Shown: positions 24,581 through 52,943, counted from the first letter of the stretch. The stretch is DNA of 64,000 nucleotides from Coraliomargarita sp. (GCA_965216325.1 OZ244160.1:416001-480000), one strand, 5' to 3'. Notes: generated by a model not told the origin, from the sequence alone. Translations and numbers: made by a program.

Positions 24581-24693
24581 GGCTGTTTTTAGGGACAGGC
24601 TATAATAAGGCTGTTTTTAGGGACAGGCTATAATAAGAGTCCAGCGGAGCTGGAGACCGCTAGGCTGTTTTCAGGGACAGGCTATAAAAAGAG
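24581..24693 (+). repeat. Three copies of the TTTT(T/C)AGGGACAGGCTATAAWAAG junction motif
   Basis: Copies at about 24581, 24610 and 24663. Confidence 0.9.
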
Positions 24694-24789
24694 GCCTGCG
24701 GGGATGCTGGATGCAGAACGTATAATTACAAGATGACTCAGCTGACCTCTTTTTTGGGTTTGTTTGATTTTGCGTGCCAATGTAATCAA

Positions 24790-24836
24790 ACACGGTCGAT
24801 TGGCCGTGTTGTCGGCTGCCCTTTATCTGCTATTAT
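24790..24836 (+). promoter_or_regulatory. Palindromic operator 5 plus promoter
   Basis: ACACGGTCGATTGGCCGTGT at 24790-24809; -35 TTGTCG, 16 bp, TGn-TATTAT. Confidence 0.8.
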
Positions 24837-24847
24837 AAGCCACCTAT

Positions 24848-25014
24848 GGGAACCTCCCCTGAACTGTTGAATTTTTTCATGTATAACCTTTGTAGCGTTT
24901 GATAGCATCTATTGTTTAAACATGAAATACCGTAATCCCAAGAAAGATAATGACCTGTTCAGCATGATTGATCACCCGCAGGAGGTGATGCGCACAGTCA
25001 AGGGCATCAATAAA
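24848..25014 (+). mobile_element. IS5-like remnant (left end plus transposase N-terminus)
   Basis: GGGAACCTCCC end-like sequence followed by MKYRNPKKDNDLFSMIDHPQEVMRTVKGINK from 24922. Confidence 0.5.
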
Positions 25015-25078
25015 ATCTAAAAATCAGACACTCCAACCATTCGAAAACCGAATCCAACCGAACCAGGCTCAATTTAGT

Positions 25079-26500
25079 ATGAAAAATACGAAACAACCTA
25101 ACCCGCGCCGTCAAAACGGTCTTTTCAGAGGTGCTTCCATACAACGTAGAAACTTCCTTAAAACCGCAGCAGCCGCCAGTGCGGGTGCCTTTGTATTGCC
25201 ACGCTTCTCTATTGGCCAGCCTGGCCCGTCGGCGAATAGCAAACTGAACATCGCGCATATCGGTGCCGGTAACATCGCTAATATGGCGTATGGCTGTACT
25301 CGTGTCGAGAATGTCGTGGCGCTGTGCGATATTGATAGTCGTATGTTTCCCGATTGGGCTGCCTCCAATAACATACCTACGTTTGCCGACTACCGTGAGA
25401 TGCTCGACAAGCTCGGCAAAGAGATTGACGGCGTCTGCATCAACACTCCCGATCATACTCACTTTAATGCGACACTGGCTTGCATGGAACGCGGTATCCA
25501 CGTCTGCACGCAAAAGCCGTTGACGCATAACGTCTGGCAAGCGCGCACGCTGCGTAAGGCTAAGGATAAATATAAGGTGGTCACCAATATGGCCAATCAA
25601 GGCCACACCTTCGATGGCATTCGCAAGATGCGCGAGATGTATGAAGCAGATTGCTTCGGGCAGGTTCGAGAAGTGCACCTCGGTTTTAACGGACCCGATT
25701 GGAACTCTAGATTCTTCAAGAAACAGAAGTCTATGCCTTTAAGCGGCGAACCAGTTCCAGCTGAGGTGAACTGGGATCTATGGCTGGGCCCAGCTCAAGA
25801 ACATCCTTATAATCGCGATTTGCATCCCCTGAGCTGGCGTGGCTTTTACGATTTTGGCACCGGGCAATTTGGTGACTGGTTTTGTCATATCGGAGATGGC
25901 GCTGTCTGGGTGCTTGATTTGTATGAGCCCACGGTGATCGAATGCGTTGAGCGTGGGCCTGCGATGGAGGGAATGATTCCGGATTACAGTATCGTGCGCT
26001 TTGATTTCCCTGCGCGTGGCAACAAGGCTGCGTGCTCAATGACTTGGTATGATGGTACGAACAACGGTGGCACGCCGATCAAATCACCGGATGATTGGGG
26101 ATGGGGCAGGGTGCCGAATAAGGGCTCTTTCTGGTATGCTGACAAAGGCAATGCCTTCCTGGATCAATACTCCAACAATCCTCGATTTGCTGTTAAAGAG
26201 CAGATGGTTGCCTTTAAAGAGAGCGGCGGTGTCGCAGAGAAATATGCCCGCGTCAAAGGCGGCCCACACAGAGAGTGGATGCGCGCGATTAAGGGAGATA
26301 TTTCTGAATGTGGATCGAACTTTGATTACGCCGCTCCGATGACGGAGGTTGCTTTGCTGGGTGTGCTCGCGCAGCGCTTCGGCGGCCGGATTGAGTGGGA
26401 TAGCAAAAACATGCGTATCACCAATCGCCCCGAGCTGAATGTATTTATTAAGGAGCCTGTTCGCGCAGGCTGGGAGGCCGGTCAAGATCTTTGGTCTTAA
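25079..26500 (+). CDS. Tat-exported Gfo/Idh/MocA family oxidoreductase (paralog of 5512..6930)
   Basis: QRRNFLK Tat motif; TPDHTHF, QKPLTHNVWQAR, DLWLGPA. Confidence 0.92.
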   Translation: MKNTKQPNPRRQNGLFRGASIQRRNFLKTAAAASAGAFVLPRFSIGQPGPSANSKLNIAHIGAGNIANMAYGCTRVENVVALCDIDSRMFPDWAASNNIPTFADYREMLDKLGKEIDGVCINTPDHTHFNATLACMERGIHVCTQKPLTHNVWQARTLRKAKDKYKVVTNMANQGHTFDGIRKMREMYEADCFGQVREVHLGFNGPDWNSRFFKKQKSMPLSGEPVPAEVNWDLWLGPAQEHPYNRDLHPLSWRGFYDFGTGQFGDWFCHIGDGAVWVLDLYEPTVIECVERGPAMEGMIPDYSIVRFDFPARGNKAACSMTWYDGTNNGGTPIKSPDDWGWGRVPNKGSFWYADKGNAFLDQYSNNPRFAVKEQMVAFKESGGVAEKYARVKGGPHREWMRAIKGDISECGSNFDYAAPMTEVALLGVLAQRFGGRIEWDSKNMRITNRPELNVFIKEPVRAGWEAGQDLWS

Positions 26501-26519
26501 TTTGTGGTCTGTAATACGT

Positions 26520-27689
26520 ATGAAAAAATACCTCATTCTTCTTTCCGTAGTCTGGATTGGTCTATCCTCACATACTGTCTTTGCTGATGGCGCATTTTTT
26601 GGCGATCCACCAGACGCGCATCATCCCTGGGCGGTGCACGATGAGAATCGTCCGCAACCGCCGCGTGTGGAGCCTGCGGCAACAGTGGGCGGTGCACCTT
26701 CGGATGCAGTCGTGCTTTTTGATGGCTCTGAACGTTCATTTAAAAGCAATTGGCGACATGCAAGTCCGAGCGACGAACGTAAGGCCGATTGGGCGGTGTG
26801 TGATGGCTATATGCTCGCTGTTCGCGGCGCAGGTTATATCGAGACGCAGGCACAGTTCGGAGATTGCCAGGTGCACATCGAGTGGTCGCACGAAAAGCGG
26901 CTTCCCGGCTCGGGGCAGGGACGCGGTAATAGCGGCGTGTTCTTACCTGGTGGGATCGAAGTGCAGGTGCTGGATAATTATAACAACCGCAGCTACGCGG
27001 ACGGCTCCGCGGGGGCGGTTTACGGTGTGATGCCACCTGCGGTGAATGCACTGCACGCTCCGGGGCAGTGGCAGAGCTACGATATTATTTTCCGTCGCCC
27101 GATCGTGCGCGACGGCGTATTAATTGATGAAGGCTCGATGACGGTGATGGTCAATGGAGTCGTGGTGCAAGACAGCACCCCGCTGGATGGCGGAGGCGGT
27201 CATAAAAAGCGCAAGGCGCTGAATCATGCATATCCGGATGCGGGGCCGTTGCGCTTACAGGATCATGGCGACCCGGTGCGCTTCCGTAATATCTGGGTGC
27301 GTGCCTTGCGTCCACGGCCTGCCGATGGAGGCACCGATGGGCGACTTTCAGCTGAGGCCACTACGGCGAAACGTGCTGAAATCGCCGAGGATGTGCGCAG
27401 GAGTGCGGCGGATTTGCAGGGCTATGATCGGGTGCTGCGCCTGTTGGAAGCTTATATGTATGATAACAATCCTGAAGCGTGGACTGAGTGCGATGCATTG
27501 GTCACTGCCTCTGTGGTAGGTTTGAAAGATCTGTCCGCGGCTGATTTGGAGCAGCAGCGCCGAGCGTTGACTAAGTTACGCAATGCGCTCAACTTCTTAC
27601 AGCGCTTTGCGATGATTCCAAATGATTATGCGCCTGAACAAGAACTGAAGCGTATCGCAGTCGCGCAGGGGTGGTTGAAGAAGCGCTAG
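26520..27689 (+). CDS. DUF1080 protein with a C-terminal helical extension
   Basis: APSDAVVLFDG, GQGRGNSGVF, EVQVLD, LQDHGDPVRFRNIW; signal peptide from ATG 26520. Confidence 0.9.
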   Translation: MKKYLILLSVVWIGLSSHTVFADGAFFGDPPDAHHPWAVHDENRPQPPRVEPAATVGGAPSDAVVLFDGSERSFKSNWRHASPSDERKADWAVCDGYMLAVRGAGYIETQAQFGDCQVHIEWSHEKRLPGSGQGRGNSGVFLPGGIEVQVLDNYNNRSYADGSAGAVYGVMPPAVNALHAPGQWQSYDIIFRRPIVRDGVLIDEGSMTVMVNGVVVQDSTPLDGGGGHKKRKALNHAYPDAGPLRLQDHGDPVRFRNIWVRALRPRPADGGTDGRLSAEATTAKRAEIAEDVRRSAADLQGYDRVLRLLEAYMYDNNPEAWTECDALVTASVVGLKDLSAADLEQQRRALTKLRNALNFLQRFAMIPNDYAPEQELKRIAVAQGWLKKR

Positions 27690-27931
27690 TTTGTTCGTAT
27701 TTCAGTTTTCTTTGTGCGTGGCTTTACCAGAACCTGGCAAATGGATTGTCAGCGCAAGCTCCCTCCAAAAGTGACTGCGATGCGCGGTCACTTTTGGGAC
27801 GGTTTGTCTGTGATCAAGGGGCTACGTCGGGATGTCTTATAGTGAGTATATAGATAGCTTGCTCTGCCTAACGCCTAAATAGTCCGCATTCGCCTACCAT
27901 TTACAAAAAAATCCTAGCAATCTAGCTATCC

Positions 27932-29018
27932 ATGAAAAAAATCACTGCTCGTATGGGGCATCTGTCTCGTCCTGCTCTTACCAATTACCACTTCCGCAGC
28001 CACCTACCATGTGGATGCGGAGGGCGGCAACGACACTAACAGCGGAACATCACCTGCGGCCGCTTGGCACTCGCTCGCGCATGCCAGTGCGCAGACCTTT
28101 GCGCCGGGCGATCAGATTCTGCTGCAGCGTGGCGATACCTTTCTCGGCACACTAATACTGGACAACGAGAGCGGCACGCAAGCTGAACCCATTATCGTGG
28201 GAGCTTACGGCACAGGCGATCTGCCCGTGATTGATGCCGCCGGTTACCTGGCGGGAGTGAATATCCGTGATGTCGAATACATTGAGGTGCAGGATCTCGA
28301 AATTACATCCAATGGTGGCCCCGTGTTGGATGGCTCCGCAGGCCTCGCCGAAAAGGACGAGTGGAACGCCGATAAAGCACGCTACGGCGTCTACGTCAAT
28401 GGCATCACGGGCACTGCGGTGGGACATGTGACGCTGCGCAACCTCTACATCCATGACATCTTCCCCACTAGCGATCGGGCCACCGAAGGTGCCAACCCGA
28501 CGACCTCCTACACCGTTTCGGGACTCGACCTGAGTCGTTACGGTGGCGCATTCGGCGAAACACTTGTATTTGACGTTACATATACTCAAACTGGCGGAAC
28601 CGAAGTTGTATTCAACTCAACTGGGCGTGTCGGAGTCGCCAATATTACTGGTCTAGATAGCCAGATAGATGAGAATGAAGCACTGACGGCTGCTGTTGAC
28701 TTCAATGAGGGTGCCTCAACATTCAGCGGAGATTTTGCTAACCTTTCGATTGGCTTCACCAGAGTAGCTCCGGGTGGGGTAAATGACGGCGAAACATGGG
28801 AGGTGACTCACGGTTCAGCGCCGACCACCATCAGTCGAGCCTACAGCAGCCGGATTGCCACGTTTGCAAGCTCTGACTATTTCACTATTAGTAACGTTTC
28901 TGGTGCAATGAACCTAGGGGCGGTGGATGTTGAAATTGTTGACATCCCCGAGCCTTCCTTCTGCGCCGCGCTTCTCGGTCTTGGCTGTCTCACGCTGATC
29001 CTCCGCCGTCGTCAATAA
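27932..29018 (+). CDS. Chimeric PEP-CTERM protein (beta-helix enzyme N-terminus plus PEP-CTERM domain), frameshifted in an A7 run after the start codon
   Basis: Removing one A from 27935-27941 gives MKKSLLVWGICLVLLLPITTSAATYHVDAEGGND..., in frame with ORF 28011..29018, which ends IPEPSFCAALLGLGCLTLILRRRQ. Confidence 0.8.
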
Positions 29019-29047
29019 GGCTAGGATGGCTATCTATCACTAAGACC

Positions 29048-29179
29048 TACAAAGCCATCCGGTATACTCTGAATCATTGGGTGAAACTATGTCGATATGT
29101 CTATTACAGCGATGCAGGTATTGACAATAATGCCGCTGAAAGGGCCGTGCGCCCGACTAAGCTTGGCATGAAGAATTGC
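29048..29179 (+). mobile_element. IS66 family transposase (TnpC) remnant
   Basis: Translates YKAIRYTLNHWVKLCRY...IDNNAAERAVRPTKLGMKN, the IS66 IDNNxAERxxR motif. Confidence 0.8.
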
Positions 29180-37835: not shown

Positions 37836-37846
37836 TACCACTTTAC

Positions 37847-38863: not shown

Positions 38864-38866
38864 GAT

Positions 38867-40834: not shown

Positions 40835-41114
40835 TTGCTTCGGGTGTAATGAGATTAAAACGTATAATAGTCTGTTTATAAGATGCCTCGTTCACTGCAA
40901 GGGGGGAAGCATTAATTTACCCGGATCACCCGTGAGAGTGGGGGCCGGCGCTACAGGCCTGTTGTTAGTACTGTTCGTCCAGCGTACGTCTGATGGTAGT
41001 TTGATGTGCAGTGATTGGTGTATTTGGCTTGCACCAAGGAAACCTTGCGTTGGGAAGTCGAGACCGCTGGAGAGAGGAGGCAACTGAGTGAGGGCTCTGC
41101 AGTCATCCAACCAG

Positions 41115-41162
41115 ACACGGTTGATTGACCGTGTTTACAGGAAGGATGCTTTTCGGCATTAT
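41115..41162 (+). promoter_or_regulatory. Palindromic operator 7 plus promoter, in the divergent TCS/sulfatase intergenic region
   Basis: ACACGGTTGATTGACCGTGT at 41115-41134; -35 TTTACA, 17 bp, -10 CATTAT. Confidence 0.8.
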
Positions 41163-41293
41163 CACATACGCCAGATTTGGAGCTAAATAATGAAGCTGAA
41201 ATCTTCTGGCACCGGCGCGACTCAGCTCATCCGCTCACTGAGCAATCGAACTCCAAGTCGGTTGATCTCCTATTGAATTTAAATGACAAAACC

Positions 41294-43525
41294 ATGATTA
41301 AGAAAAAAAGACTCGTGACACTACTGGCAACGGCAGCCCTGATGGGCGCAGGCTTTGTTATGGGGGCTCCGACACCTAATATAGTTCATATATTTACAGA
41401 TGACCTTGGGCAGCAGGATGTGGAGTGCTATCGCGGCGGTCGCGGATCGCTCTACGAAACCCCCAATATGAATAAGCTGGCGGCGAACGGCATGCGTTTT
41501 ACCCATGCTTATTCGCCCTCTCCGACTTGTGCGCCCTCAAGGTCTGCATTCATGACGGGGCAGTATGGCCCCCGCAATGGGATTTTACATGTCATGGGTG
41601 GCCTGTTGCCACGGCCCTTGGCTCCGCACTACAATCACATCGCCCCGTTTTACTCATGCCGTATCCCGGTCGATGCCAATACCATTGCGCGCACGCTGAG
41701 TCAGGCTGGCTACATCACAGGCCACATCAAGAAAATGCATGTTGGAGGCCGCGGAGGAGGCTATCCCTATCCGCTAACCTACGGTTTTGATTTCAGTTGG
41801 GGAGCGCACCGGGACTACAACGACCCGGAGTTGTGGGATCCAAAAATGAAGAACAAGTTAGAGTATGAAAATGGCTTGTGGCTTCCGATGCGCCCGAATC
41901 GCCTGCACGGCTTTGCGACTTCGGAGCCCGACGATCCCTTCCGTACGGATCCGAATGATGATGACCGTCCTTTCGACGGCACCGTCGACTTGTCCCTGCG
42001 TTGGATGGAAAAGGTGCGGCATGGGGATCAACCCTTTTTCCTGAACTACTGCACGTCTCTGGTGCATGGCCCAGTCAGTGCCCGCGACCGCAAACGCTTC
42101 GAACACTATTGCAAAAAACTGGGGATCCCGGTGCCCACCAAGCTGGGGTCGATGAACAAAACGAATTCCGGCCAGCTGAACCCGTACTACGCCACCATGG
42201 TCGATACAACCGACTGGATTGTGGGGAAACTGGTCGGCTATTTGGAAGAGACGGACGATCCACGTAACCCGGGACACAAACTCATTGAGAACACCTATGT
42301 CATCCTGAGCACGGATAACGGGGGCTGTACCGCGATACCTGCGAAGACGGAGTCCGGCGGGGTTGAACACGAACAAATTACAGATAATGCCCCCCTGCGC
42401 GAAGGGAAACAAACCCTGTACGAGGGGGGGGTGCGCATCCCGTTCATCGTCCGTGGTCCCAACATCAAGAACGGCTCCGTCTCCAGTGCCATCGTGTCGC
42501 TTATCGATCTCTATCCCACTTTTATGTCCATCGCTGGAATCGATCCGGATCCTGCGCTTGAGTTGGATGGCTGTGACATCCTGCCCGTGCTCCACGGTGC
42601 GGACAAAGCACCTCGTTTTACTGACGGTACGCCTAGAAAATCACTTTATTTCCACTACCCGGTCGAAACTCCCATGGCGAGTGCCATCCGTAAGGAAAAC
42701 TGGAAGCTTTATCTCAACATCGGCCCGGGGGTGAATCACAATCCGAAAATAGAGCTGTTCAAACTGACCAATGAAGATGGCTCCGACTGCGACGTGAGCG
42801 AAAAGAATAACCTGGCGGACACAGAATCCGCCAAAGCGGCAGAGCTCCTTGGCGATCTTGAAGCTTGGTTGACCGAACAGGATGCGGCCATGCCCTATAA
42901 AAATCCTGAATACAATGGCGCATTGGAAGGCAAAGATCAGGTCGCAACGGTCGCATCGCGTGGAAGTGATGGAGCAACAGTCTATGTGACGGTAGACACC
43001 GAAGGTGGCAAGGCGCCGATCGAAAGCGCAATCCTCCTGTATACAACGAATGGGAGTGATTTTCTTCGCTCGAACTCCGGATCCGAAGAGTGGTTTCAGG
43101 CACCTGCCGTAGTCAAGGGCAACCGCATCGAAGCCAAAGCCCCTCCGGGAATGACGCATGGAGTCTTTTACCTGCGTGATACCAACAGTTTCCTAATCAC
43201 TTCAGAGCCACTTCCACCAGTGAGTGAGGTGAATTACAGCCACAAGGACTCGACGTATCTTAAGCACGCCTATTTCTATCAACCTGGCTTGATCTCGATG
43301 ATCCAGTGCGGGGAGTCGGCTTTAGCCAATGCCACGAAGCAAGCATTGGAGGTCACTGCCCTAACAGCCGCGCTGCAACATGCTAAGCAGATCGCAGACA
43401 CTCCTGTGAGTGAAGAACCCTATGCCAAGGCGATACGGCAGGTGCGCAAAGAAATCCGAGCATTAAAGGGCATCCCCGAGGCTGAACTAGAAGTTCTGAA
43501 TTATTTCCCTGTCACCGATTGGTAG
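41294..43525 (+). CDS. S1 sulfatase with a long C-terminal extension (paralog of 22061..24268)
   Basis: PNIVHIFTDDLG, CAPSR, TDNGG, GKQTLYEGGVRIP; signal peptide from ATG 41294. Confidence 0.92.
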   Translation: MIKKKRLVTLLATAALMGAGFVMGAPTPNIVHIFTDDLGQQDVECYRGGRGSLYETPNMNKLAANGMRFTHAYSPSPTCAPSRSAFMTGQYGPRNGILHVMGGLLPRPLAPHYNHIAPFYSCRIPVDANTIARTLSQAGYITGHIKKMHVGGRGGGYPYPLTYGFDFSWGAHRDYNDPELWDPKMKNKLEYENGLWLPMRPNRLHGFATSEPDDPFRTDPNDDDRPFDGTVDLSLRWMEKVRHGDQPFFLNYCTSLVHGPVSARDRKRFEHYCKKLGIPVPTKLGSMNKTNSGQLNPYYATMVDTTDWIVGKLVGYLEETDDPRNPGHKLIENTYVILSTDNGGCTAIPAKTESGGVEHEQITDNAPLREGKQTLYEGGVRIPFIVRGPNIKNGSVSSAIVSLIDLYPTFMSIAGIDPDPALELDGCDILPVLHGADKAPRFTDGTPRKSLYFHYPVETPMASAIRKENWKLYLNIGPGVNHNPKIELFKLTNEDGSDCDVSEKNNLADTESAKAAELLGDLEAWLTEQDAAMPYKNPEYNGALEGKDQVATVASRGSDGATVYVTVDTEGGKAPIESAILLYTTNGSDFLRSNSGSEEWFQAPAVVKGNRIEAKAPPGMTHGVFYLRDTNSFLITSEPLPPVSEVNYSHKDSTYLKHAYFYQPGLISMIQCGESALANATKQALEVTALTAALQHAKQIADTPVSEEPYAKAIRQVRKEIRALKGIPEAELEVLNYFPVTDW

Positions 43526-43577
43526 GTCACTATTTACTATTAAAAATATAATTAGCAAATTTATTAAAAAACACACA

Positions 43578-45803
43578 ATGAAGACGTACTTAAAAACTCT
43601 CTTATCGGCAGTGTGCATCGCTGCAGCTTCGCAATGCGCGAATGCCGATCAGAATTTCACCCAGTTTACAGGGCCAGGTCTGGACTACACTACTTGGAAC
43701 GGAGCCTTGCTCATCGGTCCAGGTCACTCGCTATGGGGCATGCGAGTCGGTTATTTGAAGGGCGATAAGCTCGTGACTGGTCAGGAAATTACAAACGAAG
43801 TCGCCAGAGCCGGAGCGTACGATTCGAATCGCTCCTATGCCGATCTCGATCTAACCAACTACACGATTCGCTGGGCGAAGCATGGTCCTAATACGATGCT
43901 AGCTGAAGTGACCGCAGAAAAAGACCTTGCGCTTGTCGCCGAAGTCTATCCCGCTCACCAGAATATGGCGAACGTGGAAGTGCCTTGGCCGATTCATAAC
44001 CCCGCTCAAATGCAAGTCAGCCCTGAGGGCATCATCACCGGCACTAGCCGGCATATTGATACCGTTGCAGGCCATACCCGTATTACGGGGGGCAATGCCG
44101 AGTTTGACAATCGTTCGGTTAGCATTGCTCCGGTAGAGAAAGGGCTCGATCACTTGCGCATGGAAACATTTCCCAAGCCTGCTGAATCCTTGGATTCCGA
44201 GGCGTGCAAGGCAAGGGGCTTTAGCCATGACGGGCGTAACCGTTCCTGCGCGATCATCCATGCCAAGAAAGGTCAGAAGGTCTATCTCGCGGTATCTGTC
44301 TCGGACGGCGTGGTCGAGCCCCTGAACCTCGATGAGGCTGCGATCAAGAAGGCGATCGACGCCGCACAAGCAAACTACCTGAGCAGCAGAATGCATGGCA
44401 CTGGTAATTTGGGGCTCTGCGCAGAGCCGATGATCAATGAAATCCTGTGGACCTCCACCTACAACCCCTTTGAAAAGAAAGTGTTCATTCCCGCAGGGCG
44501 CCCATGGATGGGGGACGGCCGTTATAACCTCTGGGGCTGGGACGAGAGCTTCTGTGCGGCAGTAGTATCACTGGCGTCGGATGAGATCGCCGAGATCAAT
44601 GTGGTGCTCGCCAATGCGGACGACCGGATCGGCCCCTACGCGGGTTGGTATGTTTATAGCAAACACGGCAACCTCGACGTGTTGAAGAATAATTACCCCG
44701 TCTACAAGGGCATGTACCCGCCCGACAATGCCGAGCTGGTGAAATGTGGCAATGACTGGAATGCCGAAGTCGGACGCGGCATGGATGACACACCCATGCG
44801 TGAGCACTGGCTGAAGCTCGGCGTGATGTATTCACTGGATATGTCCTCCATGAAAGCGTGGAACCTGGAACTACTCGCCAAGATGGCCAAAGAGCTTGGA
44901 AAGGACGAAGAGGCCAAGCAATATCAGGCCAGCTACCAAGCGCTCGCTCAAAAAATCAATGACACCTTTTGGAATGAAGAGGCCGGGATTTACCGGAACC
45001 GCTATGTGTCAGGCAAGTGGCCGGTCACCGAAAGCCCGACTTCATTCTACCCATGGCTGGCGGGCGTGGTCGATGCCGAGCGCTCAGAAAGGTTGCTGGC
45101 CACCCTGATGGATGAATCCAAATTCTGGGGCGAATATGTGATCCCCTCGCTCGCCAAGGATGACCCTCAATATGGGAAAGTGGCGGAGCATAAACATGAC
45201 AACAGAATATTTCCTGCCTTCTGTTACTGGCGCGGCAATATCTGGCCACCGTCCAATTACCTGGTCTACGAAGGCCTCAAGCGGGCAGGGCACGACATGG
45301 CGGCCGCTGCCTATGCCGAGAAATCCGTCAAAATGTGGCATGACAACTGGCTGGTCACCGGCGGCTTCCCTGAGAACTATCACCCGGAAACCGGCAAGCG
45401 CTCGGAAATGGCGCACAAACATCAGACCTGGACTACCTTGTTCACCATGGTGGGAGTCAAGGAGCTGATTGATGTTGAGATCTGGTCCGATCCAAATGCG
45501 CTGCGTTTTGGCACCATGTCCAAAGGCGATAATGCGATCTACAACTACCATCACCGCGGCCACCGCTACGACTTGGAAATCAGCGCCGACGGCTTGACCG
45601 TCAAAAAAGATGGCAAGCCATTGCTGACCACCTCCTCCGATCAGTGCGTGATTCGCGACTTCATCTGCGCCGACGGCCAAGTCTCCTGCGTGGTTGAAAG
45701 CGTGAAAGCGCAGGACATCAAATTCTACGGTGCACCAAACACCAAGCCACTGAATTTCAAAGCCGCTGCCGGAACCACTCAAGTATCGCTAAGCTGGGAC
45801 TGA
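43578..45803 (+). CDS. Secreted (alpha/alpha)6-barrel glycoside hydrolase, GH63/MGH1/trehalase-like
   Basis: LWGWDESF, GMDDTP, INDTFWNEEAG, YWRGNIWPPSNYLVYEGL, FPENY. Confidence 0.8.
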   Translation: MKTYLKTLLSAVCIAAASQCANADQNFTQFTGPGLDYTTWNGALLIGPGHSLWGMRVGYLKGDKLVTGQEITNEVARAGAYDSNRSYADLDLTNYTIRWAKHGPNTMLAEVTAEKDLALVAEVYPAHQNMANVEVPWPIHNPAQMQVSPEGIITGTSRHIDTVAGHTRITGGNAEFDNRSVSIAPVEKGLDHLRMETFPKPAESLDSEACKARGFSHDGRNRSCAIIHAKKGQKVYLAVSVSDGVVEPLNLDEAAIKKAIDAAQANYLSSRMHGTGNLGLCAEPMINEILWTSTYNPFEKKVFIPAGRPWMGDGRYNLWGWDESFCAAVVSLASDEIAEINVVLANADDRIGPYAGWYVYSKHGNLDVLKNNYPVYKGMYPPDNAELVKCGNDWNAEVGRGMDDTPMREHWLKLGVMYSLDMSSMKAWNLELLAKMAKELGKDEEAKQYQASYQALAQKINDTFWNEEAGIYRNRYVSGKWPVTESPTSFYPWLAGVVDAERSERLLATLMDESKFWGEYVIPSLAKDDPQYGKVAEHKHDNRIFPAFCYWRGNIWPPSNYLVYEGLKRAGHDMAAAAYAEKSVKMWHDNWLVTGGFPENYHPETGKRSEMAHKHQTWTTLFTMVGVKELIDVEIWSDPNALRFGTMSKGDNAIYNYHHRGHRYDLEISADGLTVKKDGKPLLTTSSDQCVIRDFICADGQVSCVVESVKAQDIKFYGAPNTKPLNFKAAAGTTQVSLSWD

Positions 45804-45814
45804 CAATCTGGTCA

Positions 45815-45863
45815 ACACGGTCAATTGACCGTGTTGACGGCATTGTTTTTTTTTTGCTAGACT
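45815..45863 (+). promoter_or_regulatory. Palindromic operator 8 (perfect 28-bp palindrome at 45811-45838) plus promoter with a T10 spacer tract
   Basis: GTCAACACGGTCAATTGACCGTGTTGAC; -35 TTGACG, 18 bp, TGn-TAGACT. Confidence 0.85.
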
Positions 45864-45939
45864 GTTATCTACTGTTATCTACAGTTGCGAAGATGAATTG
45901 AATCTTCGGCCTTGTAAATCAAACCCCTGAAAACAAAAT

Positions 45940-46689
45940 ATGCCTACTAAACATCTAATTACACTCTCTCTCGCAACTATCGGCCTCGCCACGGTTTCGA
46001 ATGCGGCAAGTATCGGGTTGAATTTCGTCGACGGACGTAGCGGACTAGATCCCCAGTCGATCGGTGCAGCCGAAAGCGCCGGTGTCGTTTCGCAAGTGAA
46101 CTGGAACAATACCAACGCGGAGGGTGCTGACGTATCCGCAGGATTTACCAGAACCACGTTGGATATCGCCAGCCCGATCGCCGACACACTTGTCGATAAT
46201 ACAGGCGTCGATAGCGGAGCGACGGTATCGTGGTTTGCATCGAGCACATGGTCGCCAGTCTCCGCAGGGACAGACGGCGACGGTGCTTTGATGTCGGATT
46301 TCCTGCAACCCGCTAACGGAACAGCGTCAGTGACCTTTAGCGACCTTACTTACGATACCTACGACGTGTATCTGTATTTTGGTCGTGGACAATATGCTAA
46401 TATTAATGGCGACACAACAGCCGACATCTCGATCGGCGCGACCACCAAGACCGTTACGATGTCCGGCGAGGGCACTGGTTTTGCGGGATTCGTCGAAGAT
46501 GTAAACTACGTCCGCTTTTCCGGCGTGACCGGTTCCAGCTTTACTGCATCGTTTGATCATATCAGTGGTAGCTTCACAGCGGGCATCAAGGGCATTCAGG
46601 TCGTCGCCGTCCCCGAGCCCTCTACTGCAGCGCTCCTTGCTGGTTGCCTCGGGCTAGGCCACGTAATGATGCGTCGTCGCCGCCGATAA
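45940..46689 (+). CDS. PEP-CTERM sorting domain protein
   Basis: Signal peptide; C-terminal VPEPSTAALLAGCLGLGHVMMRRRRR. Confidence 0.92.
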   Translation: MPTKHLITLSLATIGLATVSNAASIGLNFVDGRSGLDPQSIGAAESAGVVSQVNWNNTNAEGADVSAGFTRTTLDIASPIADTLVDNTGVDSGATVSWFASSTWSPVSAGTDGDGALMSDFLQPANGTASVTFSDLTYDTYDVYLYFGRGQYANINGDTTADISIGATTKTVTMSGEGTGFAGFVEDVNYVRFSGVTGSSFTASFDHISGSFTAGIKGIQVVAVPEPSTAALLAGCLGLGHVMMRRRRR

Positions 46690-46732
46690 TTTTTCATATT
46701 AAGGGATAATATATAATAGGGATATATAGGGT

Positions 46733-46769
46733 AAAGCCCCTCGCAGTTCAGCTGTGAGGGGCTTTTTTT
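46733..46769 (+). terminator. Rho-independent terminator (identical copy at 48187-48223)
   Basis: AAAGCCCCTCGCAG-loop-CTGTGAGGGGCTTTTTTT. Confidence 0.85.
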
Positions 46770-47157
46770 GTGGTATGCGATTAAGCGCAAAGCGTCTTGA
46801 GCCCGATTTATGCAATAGGATGAGCAAGTTGCGCGGCAAGTGCAGCCGAGGGAACGTATAAACCTGGTGTGAATGGCACTCGTTTAAGGCCATGTATCGT
46901 ATGGGGCAGGCGATCTCCGTGCCTTGTAAGTTCTGCACGGGTAACCGGAATCGATAAGAGGGGCGCTGAAAAGGAGGAGTTGAACCGTTAATGGACGTTA
47001 ATGAACGTTAATTTTTCATGTGGATGGGCTTGATTTGAATGAGTGCAATAAATCAACAGCATTGATACGTCATTCGGAATCTCTCACCAGAATGACGAGT
47101 CCTCTGATTAACGTTCATTCACGTTCATTGACGGTTAAAAAAAGCAGAGTGTTTTTA

Positions 47158-47211
47158 GTGTTTTTAGGGACAGGCTATAAAAGTGTTTTTAGGGACAGGC
47201 TATAAAAAGAG
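47158..47211 (+). repeat. Two copies of the GGGACAGG junction motif
   Basis: GTGTTTTTAGGGACAGGCTATAA x2, directly before a duplicated segment. Confidence 0.9.
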
Positions 47212-47213
47212 CC

Positions 47214-47524
47214 CCGACGGCCAGGTCTCCTGCGTGGTTGAAAGCGTGAAAGCGCAGGACATCAAATTCTACGGTGCACCAAACACCAAGCCACTGAATT
47301 TTAAAGCCGCTGCCGGAACCACTCAAGTATCGCTAAGCTGGGACTGACCCTCGGGGCAACACGGTCAATTGACCGTGTTGACGGCATTGTTTTTTTTTTT
47401 GCTAGACTGTTATCTACAGTTGCGAAGATGAATCGAATCTTCGGCCTTATAAATCAAACCCCTGAAAACAAAATATGCCTACTAAGCATCTAATTACACT
47501 CTCTCTCGCAACTATCGGCCTCGC
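47214..47524 (+). repeat. Copy of 45670-45989 (3' end of the GH63-like gene, operator/promoter, first 17 codons)
   Basis: Near-identical DNA. Confidence 0.92.
47359..47408 (+). promoter_or_regulatory. Palindromic operator 9 plus promoter with a T11 spacer tract
   Basis: ACACGGTCAATTGACCGTGT at 47359-47378; -35 TTGACG, 19 bp, TGn-TAGACT. Confidence 0.82.
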
Positions 47525-48143
47525 TGCCGGTGAGGCTAACGCTGCGACCATCACCTGGCAAACGCCCGTGAGCGTATCCGGTGACGGGACCGCCGACATC
47601 GACAACACAGGGACACTCGAGTACGCCTATCAGTACGGGGCGTTCAGCGGTGCGCTGACCATTGACGGCGTAACCTTCGCCGATGTCAGCGATACAACTG
47701 CATCTGGAGGAACAAACTTTACGACCGCAGTTGACGCGGGGCAGCAAGGCGACATCGGCGAGGTCGCCGGCACCACAGGCGACTACCAAACACTACTCAG
47801 GCAAAACACATATGAAGCAAACAATCAAACCCCCTGGACATTGCAGGGGCTGACAAATGGCCAGGACTACCTTGTACAGTTCTGGGTCGCCGATATTCGC
47901 TACGACGATACTCAGGTTCAAACCATTGCCGGTGGCGCGAATACAACCGAGGACATCTCCATTAAGACCGGCCAATATGTGATCGGCACGTTCACTGCCG
48001 ATGCCACGACGCAGCAGGTCTCTTTCAGCGGCGACATCCTCAACGCTATGCAGCTGCGGTCGGTCCCCGAGCCCTCTACTGCAGCGCTCCTTGCTGGTTG
48101 CCTCGGGCTAGGCCACGTAATGATGCGTCGTCGCCGCCGATAA
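47475..48143 (+). CDS. PEP-CTERM sorting domain protein
   Basis: Same leader and same VPEPSTAALLAG...RRRRR tail as 45940..46689, different core. Confidence 0.92.
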   Translation: MPTKHLITLSLATIGLAAGEANAATITWQTPVSVSGDGTADIDNTGTLEYAYQYGAFSGALTIDGVTFADVSDTTASGGTNFTTAVDAGQQGDIGEVAGTTGDYQTLLRQNTYEANNQTPWTLQGLTNGQDYLVQFWVADIRYDDTQVQTIAGGANTTEDISIKTGQYVIGTFTADATTQQVSFSGDILNAMQLRSVPEPSTAALLAGCLGLGHVMMRRRRR

Positions 48144-48634
48144 TTTTTCATATTAAGGGATAATATATAATAGGGATATATAGGGTAAAGCCCCTCGCAG
48201 TTCAGCTGTGAGGGGCTTTTTTTGTGGTATGCGATTAAGCGCAAAGCGTCTTGAGCCCGATTTATGCAATAGGATGAGCAAGTTGCGCGGCAAGTGCAGC
48301 CGAGGGAACGTATAAACCTGGTGTGAATGGCACTCGTTTAAGGCCATGTATCGTATGGGGCAGGCGATCTCCGTGCCTTGTAAGTTCTGCACGGGTAACC
48401 GGAATCGATAAGAGGGGCGCTGAAAAGGAGGAGTTGAACCGTTAATGGACGTTAATGAACGTTAATTTTTCATGTGGATGGGCTTGATTTGAATGAGTGC
48501 AATAAATCAACAGCATTGATACGTCATTCGGAATCTCTCACCAGAATGACGAGTCCTCTGATTAACGTTCATTCACGTTCATTGACGGTTAAAAAAAGCA
48601 GAGTGTTTTTAGTGTTTTTAGGGACAGGCTATAA
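48063..48634 (+). repeat. Copy of 46609-47180 (PEP-CTERM tail, terminator, downstream DNA)
   Basis: Essentially identical DNA at offset 1454. Confidence 0.93.
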
Positions 48635-49110
48635 TAATACCGATAATAATACCGATTCGCAAAGGTTTGACCTGATAGGCACCACCCCGTCTCGCTTTGC
48701 GATCCACCCCTCCTCGTCAAGGAGGGGAGCTAAAGAAGCTCCTCCCCTGCGAAGGGGAGGTCATCCCGCTAGCGGGATGGGAGGGGTATTTTAGCCCAGG
48801 AGTGTTTTTAGGGACAGGAGTGTTTTTAGGGACAAAGTGTTTTTAGGGACAGGCTATAATAATACCGATAATAATACCGATTCGCAAAGGTTTGACCTGA
48901 TAGGCACCACCCCGTCTCGCTTTGCGATCCACCCCTCCTCGTCAAGGAGGGGAGCTAAAGAAGCTCCTCCCCTGCGAAGGGGAGGTCATCCCGCTAGCGG
49001 GATGGGAGGGGTATTTTAGCCCAGGAGTGTTTTTAGGGACAGGAGTGTTTTTAGGGACAGGAGTGTTTTTAGGGACAGAGTGTTTTTAGGGACAGGCTAT
49101 AAAAAGAGTC
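48612..49110 (+). repeat. Tandem ~225-bp units of a REP-like hairpin pair bracketed by 8 GGGACAG motif copies; partial third copy at 52247-52421
   Basis: Units at 48612-48836 and 48837-49061, followed by short motif repeats. Confidence 0.9.
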
Positions 49111-49296
49111 CGGCCTTTTTTGGTTCTTCGTCAATTCATCGAGCATCTTCAACATTTCACCGTGCGGATAATTGCCGACCGAGGTGTAAGCTCCATGGCC
49201 CTTTAAGGATGGCAAAGACGTCAAACGGTCCAACACTTCATATCCGAACTTAGATTCCACCATCTCAAGGAATTCTGTGAACACCAAACCTTTCAT
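49110..49296 (-). pseudogene. Truncated heme-NO-binding (HNOB/H-NOX) domain gene
   Basis: MKGLVFTEFLEMVESKFG...AYTSVGNYPHGEM; truncated after about 55 aa near the repeat. Confidence 0.8.
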
Positions 49297-49662
49297 GAGG
49301 ACTGAGGCTATTGTAGTTTTTACAGGTTGAAGCGCGTCGGATGCTGTAATTTTTACACAAACACGATGGAGAACCGCTAGATAGAATTAGATAAAAAAAC
49401 CTCATATGCCTGCATATCAGCTACTTGGGTGATAATAAAACAAAATTGGCATGGCGCATGATATAAGTCTAGCATGGCCAAAACTACTCCTACCCCGATC
49501 TCTGCGATTCCGCATATTGTCCAAGCGTCGGCATCATTGATGGTGACTCCACAGCAGCCGCATTAATGCGATTCGTTCCTCCTTGTTGCTAATATATTGT
49601 AAATTGCAACGTAATTGTCAGGTCTACGACCTGAAAATACAAAACACGACACTACACCCCCA

Positions 49663-50457
49663 ATGCCCAAAAAAATGAAATCAAACTATAAAATCAACCT
49701 GACCGCCGCCACTCTGATCGCGCTAGGTTCCTTCGCATCCGTTCGTGCTGCTGTTGTCACTTGGGACGGCGATGCAGCGGACGGACAATGGGGCACCGCC
49801 ACGAACTGGGACAGTGATGCTGCACCCGCGGCTGGCGACGACGTGAACATTGCGAACGGGGATGCCGTCAATATTACCGGAAACATTCTGGCAAGTGGTC
49901 TCAACATCACCCTCAGCGGTGGCTCGAATTTATCGTATACAGGTATTAGTGGTGCTTTTCAGTTTAACTTGAATGGTGCCACGATTGCAGTCGGCTCAGG
50001 CTCTACCCTTAACGGCGGGACTACTAGAATGTGGGGCACTTCCAAACTGGTCTTCGATGACGGGGCAGATTTTAACGGCACTATGGAGTTCAGGGACTTT
50101 AGTGATGATGGCCCTGACTTACAGTTTAATCTCGGAGCAACCGGCTTCACGACCGTTGAAGCTGGTGGCTTGGGGTTCTGGTCTGGCGATAACTTATCAA
50201 TTGTGGACTTCACCGTCGACCTTACGAACTACTCCGGCGGAGCGGATACGATCACCCTGATCGACTGGAATGGTAGCGGTAGCGCGAGTCAAGCCTTGCT
50301 CGATGCTGCCACTCAAACCTTCATCGGGGGATCTGCTAATCTTTTATGGGATGATGCTAACAATGCCATCCAGCTGAGTATCGTCCCCGAGCCCGGCACC
50401 TATGCGCTGCTGGCTGGCCTGACAGGCCTCGTCTTCGTAATGATACGTCGCCGCTAG
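49663..50457 (+). CDS. PEP-CTERM sorting domain protein (TWDG...W-type core)
   Basis: Signal peptide; VTWDGDAADGQWGTATNW; tail VPEPGTYALLAGLTGLVFVMIRRR. Start is 49663 or 49675. Confidence 0.9.
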   Translation: MPKKMKSNYKINLTAATLIALGSFASVRAAVVTWDGDAADGQWGTATNWDSDAAPAAGDDVNIANGDAVNITGNILASGLNITLSGGSNLSYTGISGAFQFNLNGATIAVGSGSTLNGGTTRMWGTSKLVFDDGADFNGTMEFRDFSDDGPDLQFNLGATGFTTVEAGGLGFWSGDNLSIVDFTVDLTNYSGGADTITLIDWNGSGSASQALLDAATQTFIGGSANLLWDDANNAIQLSIVPEPGTYALLAGLTGLVFVMIRRR

Positions 50458-50544
50458 GTTCTGAGCTTATTTTCGAATGCTAGTCGATTCGAAGGGCTGC
50501 AAGGTGACGGAATGATTTTTTCATATAGGGTTACCTATTAGGGT

Positions 50545-50577
50545 AAAGGCCGCGCTTGGGGAGCGCGGCCTTTTTTT
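50545..50577 (+). terminator. Rho-independent terminator (copy at 51889-51921)
   Basis: AAAGGCCGCGCT-TGGGG-AGCGCGGCCTTTTTTT. Confidence 0.85.
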
Positions 50578-51079
50578 GGTTCTTCGTCAATTATCGTGAA
50601 AGGGATAGCAAGGAAGCGGGATTGAAGTTCATAGAGCTTCTTCGAGATTTTCAGTGGATGCGTGCACTGTTAGGCGTTGAAGGCCTTCTGAGGGCACAGA
50701 GCACCCAAGGGGGTGGGTGGTTTAAATAACTCCTTCCCGGCAGGGAAGGTGGATCGTGACTTGTCCGCCGTAGCTCGACACGTCCGCCGTAGCTTCTGAG
50801 CGAAGGAGGAAGAGCGAAGGAGGAAGCGAGACGGCATGCGCGCCGTAGCCTTGGCGTAGGAGTGAAGGGTTCTCTGACCGAGCCTAGGCAGATTTTTGCT
50901 CCGGCTGGCTCAAATAACAGTAAAAACCCCTCCGTCCCCGCAGACGGGGCCACCTCCCCTTCGCAGGGGAGGAGCTATTAATTGCCCAATAATCACGTAA
51001 AATGGAAGATTCAAAGATGTGTGTTTTTAGGGGCAGGCTATAAAAAGAGTCGCTAAGCTGGGACTGACCCCTCGGGGCG

Positions 51080-51126
51080 ACACGGTCAATTGACCGTGTT
51101 GACGGAATTCCTTTTTCTGCTACTAT
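51080..51126 (+). promoter_or_regulatory. Palindromic operator 10 plus promoter
   Basis: ACACGGTCAATTGACCGTGT at 51080-51099; -35 TTGACG, 16 bp, TGn-TACTAT. Confidence 0.83.
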
Positions 51127-51194
51127 GAATGAGATTTTAGATTAATAAGGTTGTTATCGCCCTAAAATACAAAACCCGATAAATATATTAAAAT

Positions 51195-51800
51195 ATGAAA
51201 AAATTACACACCCTTACAGTAATCGCAGCCTTCGGCCTCAGCGCCCTCTCGGCCCAAGCGTCCATCGTCCTGCCTGACGCTGGAAACTCAGTTACTTTTG
51301 AGGCAGAAGCCTATGATGCGGAATCGGGCACTGTAATTGTAGCCGATGCTACTAATGCATCAGGTGGCTTTTATGTCGACAGCCTTGCTGCCTCGGCGGC
51401 TGGTGGTGGTAATGGTGACTTTATCAGCTTTAACATCAGTAACCTAGACACCGCGCTGACTTATGAAATTACTTTTAATTACCGTAATAACTCCAACGTC
51501 GGAGATAAGTCTACGGAGTGGGAATTTTATGGAGTGACGGGTGGCTCCACTTACACATTGCTAACGTCGATCGTTGCTCCATCTACCGGTGCTTGGAGTG
51601 GTCCTTTTTTCGAAGCGCCCACATCTACTGGCTTCAATATCGCTGCAGGCACGACCGCCATTCAGGTGGAAAACCTTACTGCTGGTAACTTTTCTCACCT
51701 TGACTCTTTCACGATTTCGGCGATCCCCGAGCCCGGCACCTATGCGCTGCTGGCTGGCCTGACAGGCCTCGTCTTCGTAATGATACGTCGCCGCCGCTAG
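51195..51800 (+). CDS. PEP-CTERM protein with a CBM6/35-like core
   Basis: VTFEAEAY...ASGGFYV; tail DNA near-identical to that of 49663..50457 (50384-50683 vs 51724-52027). Confidence 0.9.
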   Translation: MKKLHTLTVIAAFGLSALSAQASIVLPDAGNSVTFEAEAYDAESGTVIVADATNASGGFYVDSLAASAAGGGNGDFISFNISNLDTALTYEITFNYRNNSNVGDKSTEWEFYGVTGGSTYTLLTSIVAPSTGAWSGPFFEAPTSTGFNIAAGTTAIQVENLTAGNFSHLDSFTISAIPEPGTYALLAGLTGLVFVMIRRRR

Positions 51801-52943
51801 GTTCTGAGCTTATTTTCGAATGCTTGTCGATTCGACGGGCTGCAAGGTGACGGAATGATTTTTTTCATATAGGGTCACCTATTAGGGTAAAGGCCGCGCT
51901 TGGGGAGCGCGGCCTTTTTTTGGTTCTTCGTCAATTATCGTGAAAGGGATAGCAAGGAAGCGGGATTGAAGTTCATAGAGGTTCTTCGAGATTTTCAGTG
52001 GATGCTTGCACTGTTAGGCGTTCAAGGCACTTCAGCTTTGGTTACGTGGCTTTTAACCACCGATGACTCCGATGACCACCGATTGCTTTGCTTCAGTCGC
52101 ACTCGTCTCTGTGCGCATCGGTGTGATCGGTGGTTCGTCAATGCACTTCTGCGTCGGTGGCTTCCTTTAGGCCGCCACCCCGTAGGTCAGGGGGGGGGGG
52201 GGGTAGACAGTGGGAGTCTGGTACCCAGGTGCCCAAGCTGTTTTTAGTGTTTTCAGGGACAGGCTATAATAATACCGATTCGCAAAGGTTTGACCTGATA
52301 GGCACCACCCCGTCTCGCTTCGCGATCCACCCCTCCTCGTCAAGGAGGGGAGCTAAAGAAGCTCCTCCCCTGCGAAGGGGAGGTCATCCCGCTAGCGGGA
52401 TGGGAGGGGTATTTTAGCCCAGACCTTTATTGAACTGGTATAAGAATCCAGCGGAGCTGGAGACCGCTTATTCCCGCTTATGGACGCTTATTTTTAAGAT
52501 TTAAATTCTGAGGCACGTCGTGCTGGATAAGCGTAAATTAGCGTTCATAAGCGGTTAAAAAAATCTGGGTTCATTTCTTCTGCAGGCTGTTTTTAGTGTT
52601 TTTAGGGACAGGCTATAATAAGAGTCTTCTTAATTCCGTTTTTTGTTCACAACCGCTACGCTAGCACCCAAGGGCATAATAAAGGGCCCTTCCTCCTTCG
52701 CTATGCAAGCTACGGCGGACATGCCGGGCGAGGATGGGGAGTATACATTGCTGTGGCATTCTTTTCCTAAACTCCTTCCCTTGCGCAAGCGGTTGTAAAA
52801 AATTACGTAGCCTCAGTCAAAGAAGCTTAGTGCGAAGCCCGCTAAATCAGTGGTTCTATGCACCCACTCCCCAGTAAATGACGATGAACCTAAAAAGAGC
52901 CCGGAACATCTCGAAGAACCACGTGGGACTGATACGACAAGGG

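Follow-up and report, generated by a model that had tools for sequence, protein, structure and literature searches.

A short motif recurs on one strand of a 64-kb stretch of the Coraliomargarita sp. genome (GCA_965216325.1, OZ244160.1:416001-480000). We call this whole stretch the window, count positions from its first nucleotide and mark positions in the complete genome as such. The motif adjoins the edges of a truncated sulfatase gene, an H-NOX fragment, two copies of the 3′ end of a GH63-like gene and the cassettes of a PEP-CTERM gene array. An earlier reading of this DNA (the original prediction) had taken it for the end or origin of a mobile element acting in trans. Here we relate the motif to a small unit, found elsewhere in the genome, that encodes a HUH/Y1 tyrosine transposase resembling the repetitive extragenic palindrome (REP)-associated tyrosine transposases (RAYTs).

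Motif copies in the window

Sixteen copies of the motif, all on the plus strand, span positions 24582-52626. Its full 31-nt pattern is matched six times in the window when up to three mismatches are allowed, always on the plus strand (chance expectation 0.00; none of 100 shuffles equalled it), and the 14-nt core GGGACAGGCTATAA is matched 11 times with up to two mismatches, again on this strand only (chance mean 0.34). Segmentation into [AG][GC]TGTTTT[TC]AGGG units yields 15 on the plus strand and none on the minus strand; the sixteenth copy, at 51021, reads TGTGTTTTTAGGGG. The copies then group as 3 / 2 / 8 / 1 / 1 / 1, which agrees with the number, strand and grouping given in the original prediction. 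Four units consist of the 9-nt prefix only (47148, 48602, 52237 and 52586). When the clusters are cut at every (A/G)(G/C)TGTTTT(T/C), the units begin AGTGTTTTT or GCTGTTTTT, with the same start point in each, and their lengths are 9, 17, 18, 25, 28, 54, 190 and 340 nt.

The first cluster (24582-24695) comprises units of 28 and 54 nt and a terminal copy, each beginning GCTGTTTT(T/C)AGGGACAGGCTATAA, and adjoins the truncated sulfatase gene. The second (47148-47213) holds units of 9 and 25 nt and a terminal copy with an AAGAGCC end, which is fused to a copy of the sequence from 45670 onward. The third lies in three parts. At 48602-48634, a 9-nt unit is joined by a unit broken after GGCTATAA by an insert resembling a miniature inverted-repeat transposable element (MITE), and this part forms the end of a 572-bp exact duplicate. 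Units of 18 and 17 nt at 48801-48859 are followed by 24 nt that run up to a second MITE-like insert, and at 49026-49110 units of 18, 18 and 17 nt precede a full copy whose AAGAGTC end is fused to a copy of a terminator tail. A lone copy of the GGGGCAGG variant (51021-51051) is fused to a copy of 47330 onward, comprising the GH63 gene end and a palindrome. Downstream of it, a copy with a 9-nt unit (52237-52269) is interrupted past GGCTATAA by another MITE-like insert and continues with its 3′ part, TATAAGAATCC, at about 52439-52449, and a full copy with a 9-nt unit (52586-52626) has the AAGAGTC end.

The MITE-like repeat is about 170 nt long, hairpin-rich and located in the motif at TATAA (48635-48800 on the plus strand, 48860-49025 and about 52270-52438), and has some 40 partial matches on both strands of the genome. 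At 52270, TATAA stands on either side of it inside the motif, as though insertion had duplicated it. About 14 consecutive G residues at about 52192-52205, between a terminator region and a motif cluster, are likely to form a slippage-prone tract. Rfam searches at gathering thresholds found no family in the window, and ARAGORN found no tRNA or tmRNA there.

The motif core is the left terminus of a Y1 transposase unit

The motif core TAGGGACAGGCTA is the conserved 5′ terminus of a unit of about 1.09 kb, of which four intact copies exist elsewhere in the genome. A genome scan with the 14-nt core, allowing one mismatch, gives 16 matches, 11 of them in the window stretch and five at unit left boundaries; these five (genome positions 28028, 28132, 588754, 605814 and 605880) read GGGACAGGCTAAAA. 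The units with the core at their start occupy genome positions 28127-29169 (copy A), 588749-589838 (copy B) and 605869-606920 (copy C), and a fourth at 177542-178523 (copy D) is 74% identical, its end reading TAGGGACAGGCTAAAT. Likewise, 17 of 19 genome matches to the 9-mer TAGGGACAG lie in the window stretch or at unit left ends. The window stub itself consists of a T-rich prefix of about 10 nt followed by GGGACAGGCTAWA.

Each unit contains one intact open reading frame (ORF) of 326-340 amino acids and is laid out as the end, a probable −35 box and the gene. The 340-residue ORF (genome 588815-589834) matches Pfam Y1_Tnp (PF01797) with 52 bits against a cut-off of 23, the match being split at residues 75-123. 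In an alignment of 37 copies from 14 genomes, the HUH metal-binding motif NHFH and the single-tyrosine motif YIDLNP are invariant or nearly so, and homology suggests a catalytic role for them. Its best NCBIfam match, REP_Tyr_transpos (NF047646), scores 68.3 bits, under the cut-off of 80, and the transpos_IS200 model reaches 21.3 bits against a cut-off of 55. A search of the PDB sequences with the Y1 protein gave no match at E values up to 0.01. None of the genome's 16 Y1_Tnp matches in the Pfam profile search falls in the window, as expected from the claim that no cognate recombinase is encoded there.

From these comparisons, the motif is very probably the solo left-end stub of a small mobile unit encoding a RAYT-like HUH/Y1 tyrosine transposase. 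The proposal that it is an element end served by such an enzyme elsewhere in the genome is thereby upheld, the core being identical to the ends of the four Y1_Tnp units, kept at a constant spacing ahead of homologous genes in other genera and, in one relative, dispersed as a solo repeat of about 24 nt.

Identity among copies A, B and C is about 87-88%, and that of copy D about 74%. Homology between the copies stops at the stop codon, with nothing conserved past it at the right end. Several other constructions of the motif were considered and dropped. Only one 6-mer (ATCAGT, at copy A) occurs on both sides of a unit, with no consistent pattern of target-site duplication. GTGTTTTTAG is not a unit right end abutting a left end: the units end CAGGTGTTTGGNTAG and CAGGTTTTTAGCTAA, with no more than 8-10 nt in common, and upstream of the motif one does not find the 3′ end of the gene. 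A tiny insertion would require contiguous flanks, but no paralogue has the flanks of the copies at 47182 and 51021 side by side, and the motif lacks the inverted core pair of an attC site (no attC model was run).

Other features lie near the intact units. The left end of copy A cuts a second sulfatase gene (genome 27302-28036), whose 3′ half is absent beyond it, mirroring the arrangement at window positions 24290-24580. To the right of copy B, 208 nt of a gene (genome 590024-590231) are repeated at 96.6% identity immediately to its left (588519-588726), a further case in which a left end borders a duplication of adjacent DNA. The fourth intact unit (here genome 176908-178523) follows another PEP-CTERM gene (176179-176775) with its terminator at a distance of about 140 nt, and about 700 nt downstream of the unit is a short RAYT-like ORF of 164 residues (genome 179224-179715; ...VRNNPVRHGLV...).

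Conservation of the end among relatives

The 340-residue protein has a match at E values up to 1e-20 in 28 of 61 related genomes, this one (G000) included, some of which carry up to 31 or 40 matches. For a comparison of ends we took 37 distinct full-length copies from 14 genomes, each with flanks of 220 nt. Upstream, 22 of the 37 have the forward core GGG(A/G)CA(G/A/T), which in 19 of these 22 is 54-65 nt from the ATG. The forward core downstream and the inverted core on either side are each seen in 6-7 of 37, at scattered positions; three inverted upstream cores lie at 53-54 nt from the ATG. TTGAC, the likely −35 box, follows the core by about 8-9 nt.

Two relatives of the same genus tie the window motif to intact ends. 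One (G002) reads GGGACAGGCTATAAAAA, with 17 nt in common with the window motif, and the other (G003) reads TTTTTAGGGACAGGCTATAAAAA, with 23 nt identical to window positions 49083-49105. The window stub therefore descends from a variant that sister species still carry intact and of which this genome has no full copy. In five relatives, all seven matches of GGGACAGGCTAWAW adjoin a Y1 gene or gene fragment.

A genome of another genus in the same family (G005) has 37 exact WAGGGACAGGCTA sites on both strands. At the 28 sites with enough flank, only a block of about 24 nt, TTTTTAGGGACAGGCTAAGAAAA, is conserved, and the flanks are unrelated. Only one protein match and one Pfam Y1_Tnp match, amounting to 1-2 Y1 genes, were found in this genome, where full units may be unassembled because some ends lie at contig ends. 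These solo copies show that a short end can occur and proliferate without its gene, much as REPs do relative to RAYTs. Some of the 24-nt ends form inverted pairs 60-80 nt apart and others direct pairs 30-110 nt apart, a layout that resembles REP dimers (loci L128 and L135; C26 and C56). Truncated non-autonomous elements were also considered in the relatives and dropped, as 18 of 20 partial gene matches run to a contig end and are assembly breaks.

Tandem copies anchored at the left end

Partial self-copies, with a common start and differing lengths, precede the left ends of intact units. They measure 13 nt at copy B, 16 and 66 nt at copy C, 104 nt at copy A, and 130 and 433 nt at copy D, and in G002 an entire 1052-nt unit is repeated head to tail. 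The same stutter is found in G003, G014, G020, G013 and G009, and in a G034 subfamily with a different core. In a blind count, a direct repeat of at least 10 nt occurs within 220 nt upstream in 15 of 37 copies and downstream in 5 of 37 (Fisher p 0.017, overstated because related copies are not independent).

Between the common start and the core there are 8-15 nt, typically about 10-11. The prefix so defined travels with the unit, since copies B and C have unrelated outer flanks and prefixes that agree at 10 of 11 positions. In the window, CAG microhomology flanks the units of 17-18 nt.

The units may also have a preferred orientation. In 16 of 20 copies from six other genomes, and in each of the four in this genome, the top (coding) strand is the G-rich one, compared with 58% of long ORFs in the same regions as a control (one-sided p 0.036 and 0.0086, from copies that are not independent and with local GC skew only approximating replication direction). 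The window stubs lie on the G-rich strand as well, and this orientation weakly supports a single-strand mechanism. Along the genome, cumulative GC skew climbs between 0 and about 1.1 Mb, declines as far as about 1.8 Mb and then climbs until the end, a course that implies either replichores of very different size (about 2.4 and 0.7 Mb) or a large inversion of recent date.

Junctions, duplications and the PEP-CTERM cassette array

The sulfatase pseudogene (24290-24580, plus strand) is an N-terminal fragment with a frameshift near 24416. Positions 24417-24578 match Pfam Sulfatase with 33.9 bits, and the 90.7% match to a paralogue stops at 24580, so that the pseudogene is indeed cut at the first motif unit, as had been noted. 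A second breakpoint named in the original prediction is equally clear: 46609-47180 and 48063-48634 are 100% identical over 572 bp, and the duplicate ends inside the motif.

The same reading held that the DNA just after the AAGAG(T)C end repeatedly begins a copy of sequence found elsewhere. All four proposed matches are real. At 47214, directly after the motif, starts a copy of 45670 onward (45667-45989 against 47211-47524, 93.5% identity), which includes the last ~134 nt of the GH63-like gene (47214-47345, plus strand; the gene itself, identified by a Pfam match, is at 43578-45803). A copy of 47330 onward follows the motif from 51052 (47330-47395 against 51050-51116, 92.5%), and one of 52447 onward stands at 24640 (24633-24661 against 52440-52468, 96.6%). 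By direct reading, the sequence from 49111 onward (CGGCCTTTTTTGGTTCTTCGTCAATT) equals the terminator tails at 50566 and 51910, give or take one T.

With the units read as tandem copies of varying length, several of the apparent breakpoints after AAGAGTC are not breakpoints. CCAGCGGAGCTGGAGACCGCT follows the stub at 24642, and at 52450, where the MITE-like repeat of about 170 nt splits the stub, and a diverged version comes next after the third unit, at 24696. The illegitimate joints that this leaves, and that read as genuine, are 47213|47214, 49110|49111 and 51051|51052. Direct reading reveals microhomology at 49110|49111 and 51051|51052 (GAGTCCGGCC against GAGCGCGGCC, and GAGTCGCTAAGC against AGTATCGCTAAGC); none is visible on reading at 47213|47214.

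Five cassette ORFs, all on the plus strand, make up the array (45940-53907, with ORFs at 45940-46689, 47475-48143, 49615-50457, 51195-51800 and 53065-53907), and the motif clusters lie between them. Four of the five have a PEP-CTERM anchor at or above the Pfam cut-off. Beside the junction of motif and terminator tail lies a truncated H-NOX N-terminal fragment (49069-49296, minus strand; Pfam HNOB, 35.8 bits). With its upstream region (49136-49570) it is 92% identical over 456 nt to a paralogue about 83 kb downstream, outside the window. In three genomes of the same genus, we found no counterpart of 41000-56000; the matches there are short dispersed repeats and one 200-nt match to the H-NOX fragment.

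Each PEP-CTERM cassette ORF is preceded, at a distance of 100-130 nt, by a palindrome of the type ACACGGTCAATTGACCGTGTT, and one also stands before an ORF at 25079. Its sites are at 45811-45838, 47357-47390, about 51075-51100, 52942-52965, 24792-24833 and near 54463-54487. The palindrome overlaps TTGACG hexamers of promoter-like appearance and resembles an operator or promoter element common to the PEP-CTERM gene family. The array also contains a repeat family of CGTTAAT units (GAACCGTTAATNNACGTTAATGAACGTTAATTTTT) at 46965-47140 and 48419-48594, with further members at genome positions 571884, 641028, 808391, 1944180, 2017845, 2037674, 31699 and 2155366. Some of these form long imperfect hairpins, several have a start codon of the opposite strand no more than about 10 nt away, and two are adjoined by CCTCTGT heptamer microsatellites (genome 2017930-2017990 and 2037750-2037780). 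A sister repeat of CGCTTAT units occupies 52460-52560. In the window, both versions are followed by GGTTAAAAAAA and then by the motif.

Weighing the explanations

Taken as a whole, the explanation that we favour, an element-end stub together with enzyme-driven copying anchored at that end, is probable. Its more specific component, that the enzyme drove the duplications, falls a little short of an even chance in our judgement of the sequences.

A number of findings weigh against this explanation. The original prediction proposed to map the motif genome-wide and to test its adjacency to Y1_Tnp, RAYT or IS91 genes; the core does lie at the ends of Y1 units, but the motif is not spread genome-wide, being confined, apart from the four unit ends, to one 28-kb stretch. 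The unit copies are 74-88% alike and therefore old rather than freshly active. They read GGCTAAA(A/T) where the window has GGCTATAA, and no full copy of the window variant is present in the genome. We found neither a clean empty site nor a target duplication for the units, so that their ends are defined only by where homology stops. Plain slippage could make the 17-18-nt units, and the 190-nt units (48611 and 48836) are not prefixes of the copy immediately downstream, so that extra recombination must be invoked. Moreover, a simple nick-and-reseal event on the 5′ side does not predict the joints that recur 3′, after AAGAGTC. No stable structure was detected in 22 ends of 80 nt (DNA fold z −2.1 to +2.2); to our knowledge, hairpin recognition is common to all studied Y1 enzymes. 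Finally, the strand bias is modest, selection on gene orientation would bias the copies in the same way, and the Fisher and orientation p values overstate the case because related copies are not independent.

In an unlikely alternative, the motif is a passive scar: one old Y1-unit insertion decayed to a stub of about 30 nt, and its copies and junctions arose by slippage, microhomology-mediated template switching and unequal homologous recombination among the PEP-CTERM paralogues, with no role for the transposase. The prefix ((A/G)(G/C)TGTTTTT) and the tail (AAGAG) common to all window copies point to one ancestor, most unit joints have CAG or AGG microhomology, and the cassettes share conserved sequence at both their 5′ and their 3′ ends, with 93.5% identity over 324 nt and 100% over 572 nt. 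The lack of dispersal in this genome and the divergence of the intact Y1 copies, which suggests little recent activity, are also in keeping with a scar. What slippage alone does not predict is that the duplications start about 10 nt before the core each time. Nor does a local accident account for end-anchored partial duplications that recur at intact units in many genomes with unrelated flanks, upstream three times as often as downstream (15 of 37 and 5 of 37), or for the end of about 24 nt at 37 dispersed sites in G005, from which it follows that a short end can spread alone.

We regard as improbable the proposal that GGGACAGGCTA is a regulatory site, an operator or UP-like element just ahead of the −35 box in the Y1 promoter, whose window copies regulate, or once regulated, the PEP-CTERM cassettes. 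The spacing in intact units would be compatible with this: the core stands at a fixed distance of about 19-20 nt before the conserved TTGAC and 54-65 nt before the ATG, and the three subfamilies with an inverted core have it at the same distance (53-54 nt), as would suit a protein-binding site. In four cases, the palindrome ahead of a cassette gene has a motif 100-320 nt before it. Yet TTGAC is lost from the window stubs, and a scan for the sigma-70 consensus misses the motif, returning at its sites only GGGACA-18-AATAAT at 48621 and 48846, where the MITE-like insert follows. Regulation also leaves unexplained the homology boundary of the units, the genes truncated at the motif and the 37 solo copies in G005. 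The roles of regulatory site and element end are not mutually exclusive.

The assembly was compared with short-read Logan contigs from four runs on two samples of one study; the order of the repeats rests on the deposited assembly, and contig joints with sides shorter than 35 nt, which fall in dispersed repeats, were left out of interpretation. That the repeats and joints are mis-joins of a repetitive region is highly improbable, even though the region is repeat-rich, short-read contigs break at repeats and no listed contig spans the whole stretch, since the genome is in one 3.06-Mb contig (24 kb masked), contigs of all four runs bridge 51051|51052 and 52626|52627 with no differences, in runs X1 and X3 the depth over the duplicated 46609-47156 is about double that of its neighbours, and point differences separate several motif copies, which would not be expected of collapsed or mis-joined reads.

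Relation to known transposase systems

The enzyme of the favoured explanation appears to belong to a recognized but unstudied branch. As described by Quentin et al. (2018), TnpA-Y1 subclass 2.3 proteins have a median of 325 residues, the signatures NHYH and YVDLNP, a large core insertion, about four copies per genome and no REPs (PMC6006769). They occur mainly in Chromatiales and Alteromonadales, and the passages concerned give no DNA end or substrate (PMC6006769). The units described here are alike in having 326-340 residues, NHFH, the class-2 Y---NP motif as YIDLNP, a core insertion (the split Pfam match), four copies and no hairpins. They differ in their host, which is of a marine Verrucomicrobium family, and in the terminal sequence, stutter and solo copies defined here. 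The protein appears nearest to subclass 2.3, as judged from the printed signatures and not from the authors' profiles.

The protein is also close to the TIRYT group. The counterparts of subclass 2.1 and its offshoots are the TIRYT/TIRtron units described by Di Nocera, De Gregorio and Rocco (2013), in which a repeat is inverted on both sides of the gene, with the terminal inverted repeat (TIR) consensus GGGGWSAS; according to the same text, TIR repeats form moderately abundant families with single, dimeric or grouped copies (PMC3733652). A RAYT-like tyrosine transposase gene with a flanking non-REP repeat is a shared feature, and the grouping of copies is as in G005 and the window. AGGGACAG agrees with GGGGWSAS at seven of eight positions, the consensus being that of the text and not of the sequence figure, and the copy at 51029 reads GGGGCAGG. 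In contrast to a TIRtron, an inverted core is present within 220 nt downstream in 6 of 37 units, scattered in position, against a background of 6-7 of 37. With no right-hand inverted repeat above background, the units therefore have one recognizable end.

For E. coli TnpA-REP, Ton-Hoang et al. (2012) proposed that bacterial interspersed mosaic elements (BIMEs) are amplified in tandem through a nick, extension of the 3′-OH by the host polymerase and rejoining; the enzyme cleaves loosely near its bound site, and strand transfer can assemble tandem copies (PMC3333891). A Y1 enzyme acting in trans on short repeats would be common to both systems, and the stutter would fit the nick, extension and rejoining of the BIME amplification model. 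REPs, however, are GTAG-tagged hairpins in alternating orientation, abundant in the genome and flanking the RAYT gene, whereas the site here is non-palindromic and all its window copies are on one strand. Canonical RAYTs, present once per genome, differ further from these multi-copy units (four full copies here and up to 40 matches per relative genome), which lack GTAG hairpins and whose REP_Tyr_transpos score is below cut-off.

The IS200/IS605 elements, such as IS608 and ISDra2, encode a transposase of about 150 residues with a Y---Q motif and have subterminal hairpins with guide sequences. They too have a Y1 HUH transposase, strand-specific ends and no terminal inverted repeats. An orientation bias relative to replication is described for the IS200/IS605 family (PMC3333891), whose top strand would lie preferentially on the lagging-strand template, and the modest bias towards the G-rich strand noted above may correspond to it. 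The suggestion that the motif is an IS200/IS605 end fails, since it has no subterminal hairpin, the protein has Y---NP and not Y---Q, and the IS200 model scores far below its threshold. IS91 and ISCR elements have a two-tyrosine Rep, oriIS and terIS ends, and a single origin-like end beside variable captured DNA. Both this last feature and the idea of one-ended replication that copies adjacent sequence are reminiscent of the window. An IS91-like origin was nevertheless the wrong guess, as the enzyme linked to the motif is a Y1 protein and not a two-tyrosine Rep (no search for IS91-type genes was made). In the literature on TIRYT, RAYT and HUH/Y1 transposases that was searched, a search that did not extend to supplementary figures, we found no account of end-anchored stutters or solo ends for this branch.

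A model for end-anchored copying

We infer the position of the nick, the involvement of the enzyme and the direction of events from the identity and conservation of the motif, the nested end-anchored duplications and the junctions observed above. An ancestral copy of the variant seen in same-genus relatives would have left only its first ~30 nt in the window. Y1 enzymes acting in trans would attach to the core and introduce a top-strand nick about 10 nt 5′ of GGGACAGG. The host polymerase would extend the 3′-OH by strand displacement over a variable distance, and rejoining of the tyrosine-linked 5′ end would then duplicate the first n nucleotides. Each such cycle would leave a tandem copy that starts from the nick and is of arbitrary length, from 9 nt to a whole cassette. 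Occasionally the polymerase may switch template at a microhomology and fuse the stub to a copy of neighbouring DNA, making an illegitimate joint just past the stub an occasional by-product of the cycle. The remaining shuffling would come from homologous recombination between the repeats and between the conserved ends of the PEP-CTERM genes.

The end-anchored tandem duplications and the junction microhomology suggest active copying of the PEP-CTERM cassettes, a step that is unproven, and ordinary slippage and homologous recombination are possible agents of the array shuffling. A bolder and rather doubtful extension is that these long Y1 enzymes may be one-ended, origin-like nickases that act on an asymmetric, non-hairpin site of about 24 nt, that they duplicate downstream DNA instead of moving it by cut and paste, and that the window ends are the working engine that built the PEP-CTERM array and still reshuffles it. 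If so, the stutters would be a natural map of the cleavage site for an enzyme class that has never been assayed.

Implications

Among RAYT-like tyrosine transposases, the long ones with several copies (TIRYT, subclasses 2.1 and 2.3) are widespread in bacterial genomes, and the passages that describe them define no DNA substrate, ends or activity (PMC6006769, PMC3733652). The locus described here is a variant of this known but unstudied kind of element; the original prediction had its identity right, and enzyme-driven copying of the cassettes is the part that has yet to be proved. The case supplies a terminal sequence that is conserved, nested tandem copies from which a likely cleavage position can be read, and evidence that an end of about 24 nt can occur and spread without its gene, in 16 local copies here and 37 dispersed ones in another genus. 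It also supplies a locus at which such ends stand exactly at the joints of a duplicated surface-protein gene array. An uncharacterized enzyme class thereby becomes testable, as the proposed mechanism can be examined with a few oligonucleotides and one purified protein. These arrangements suggest that a selfish DNA end could feed the expansion of a gene family.

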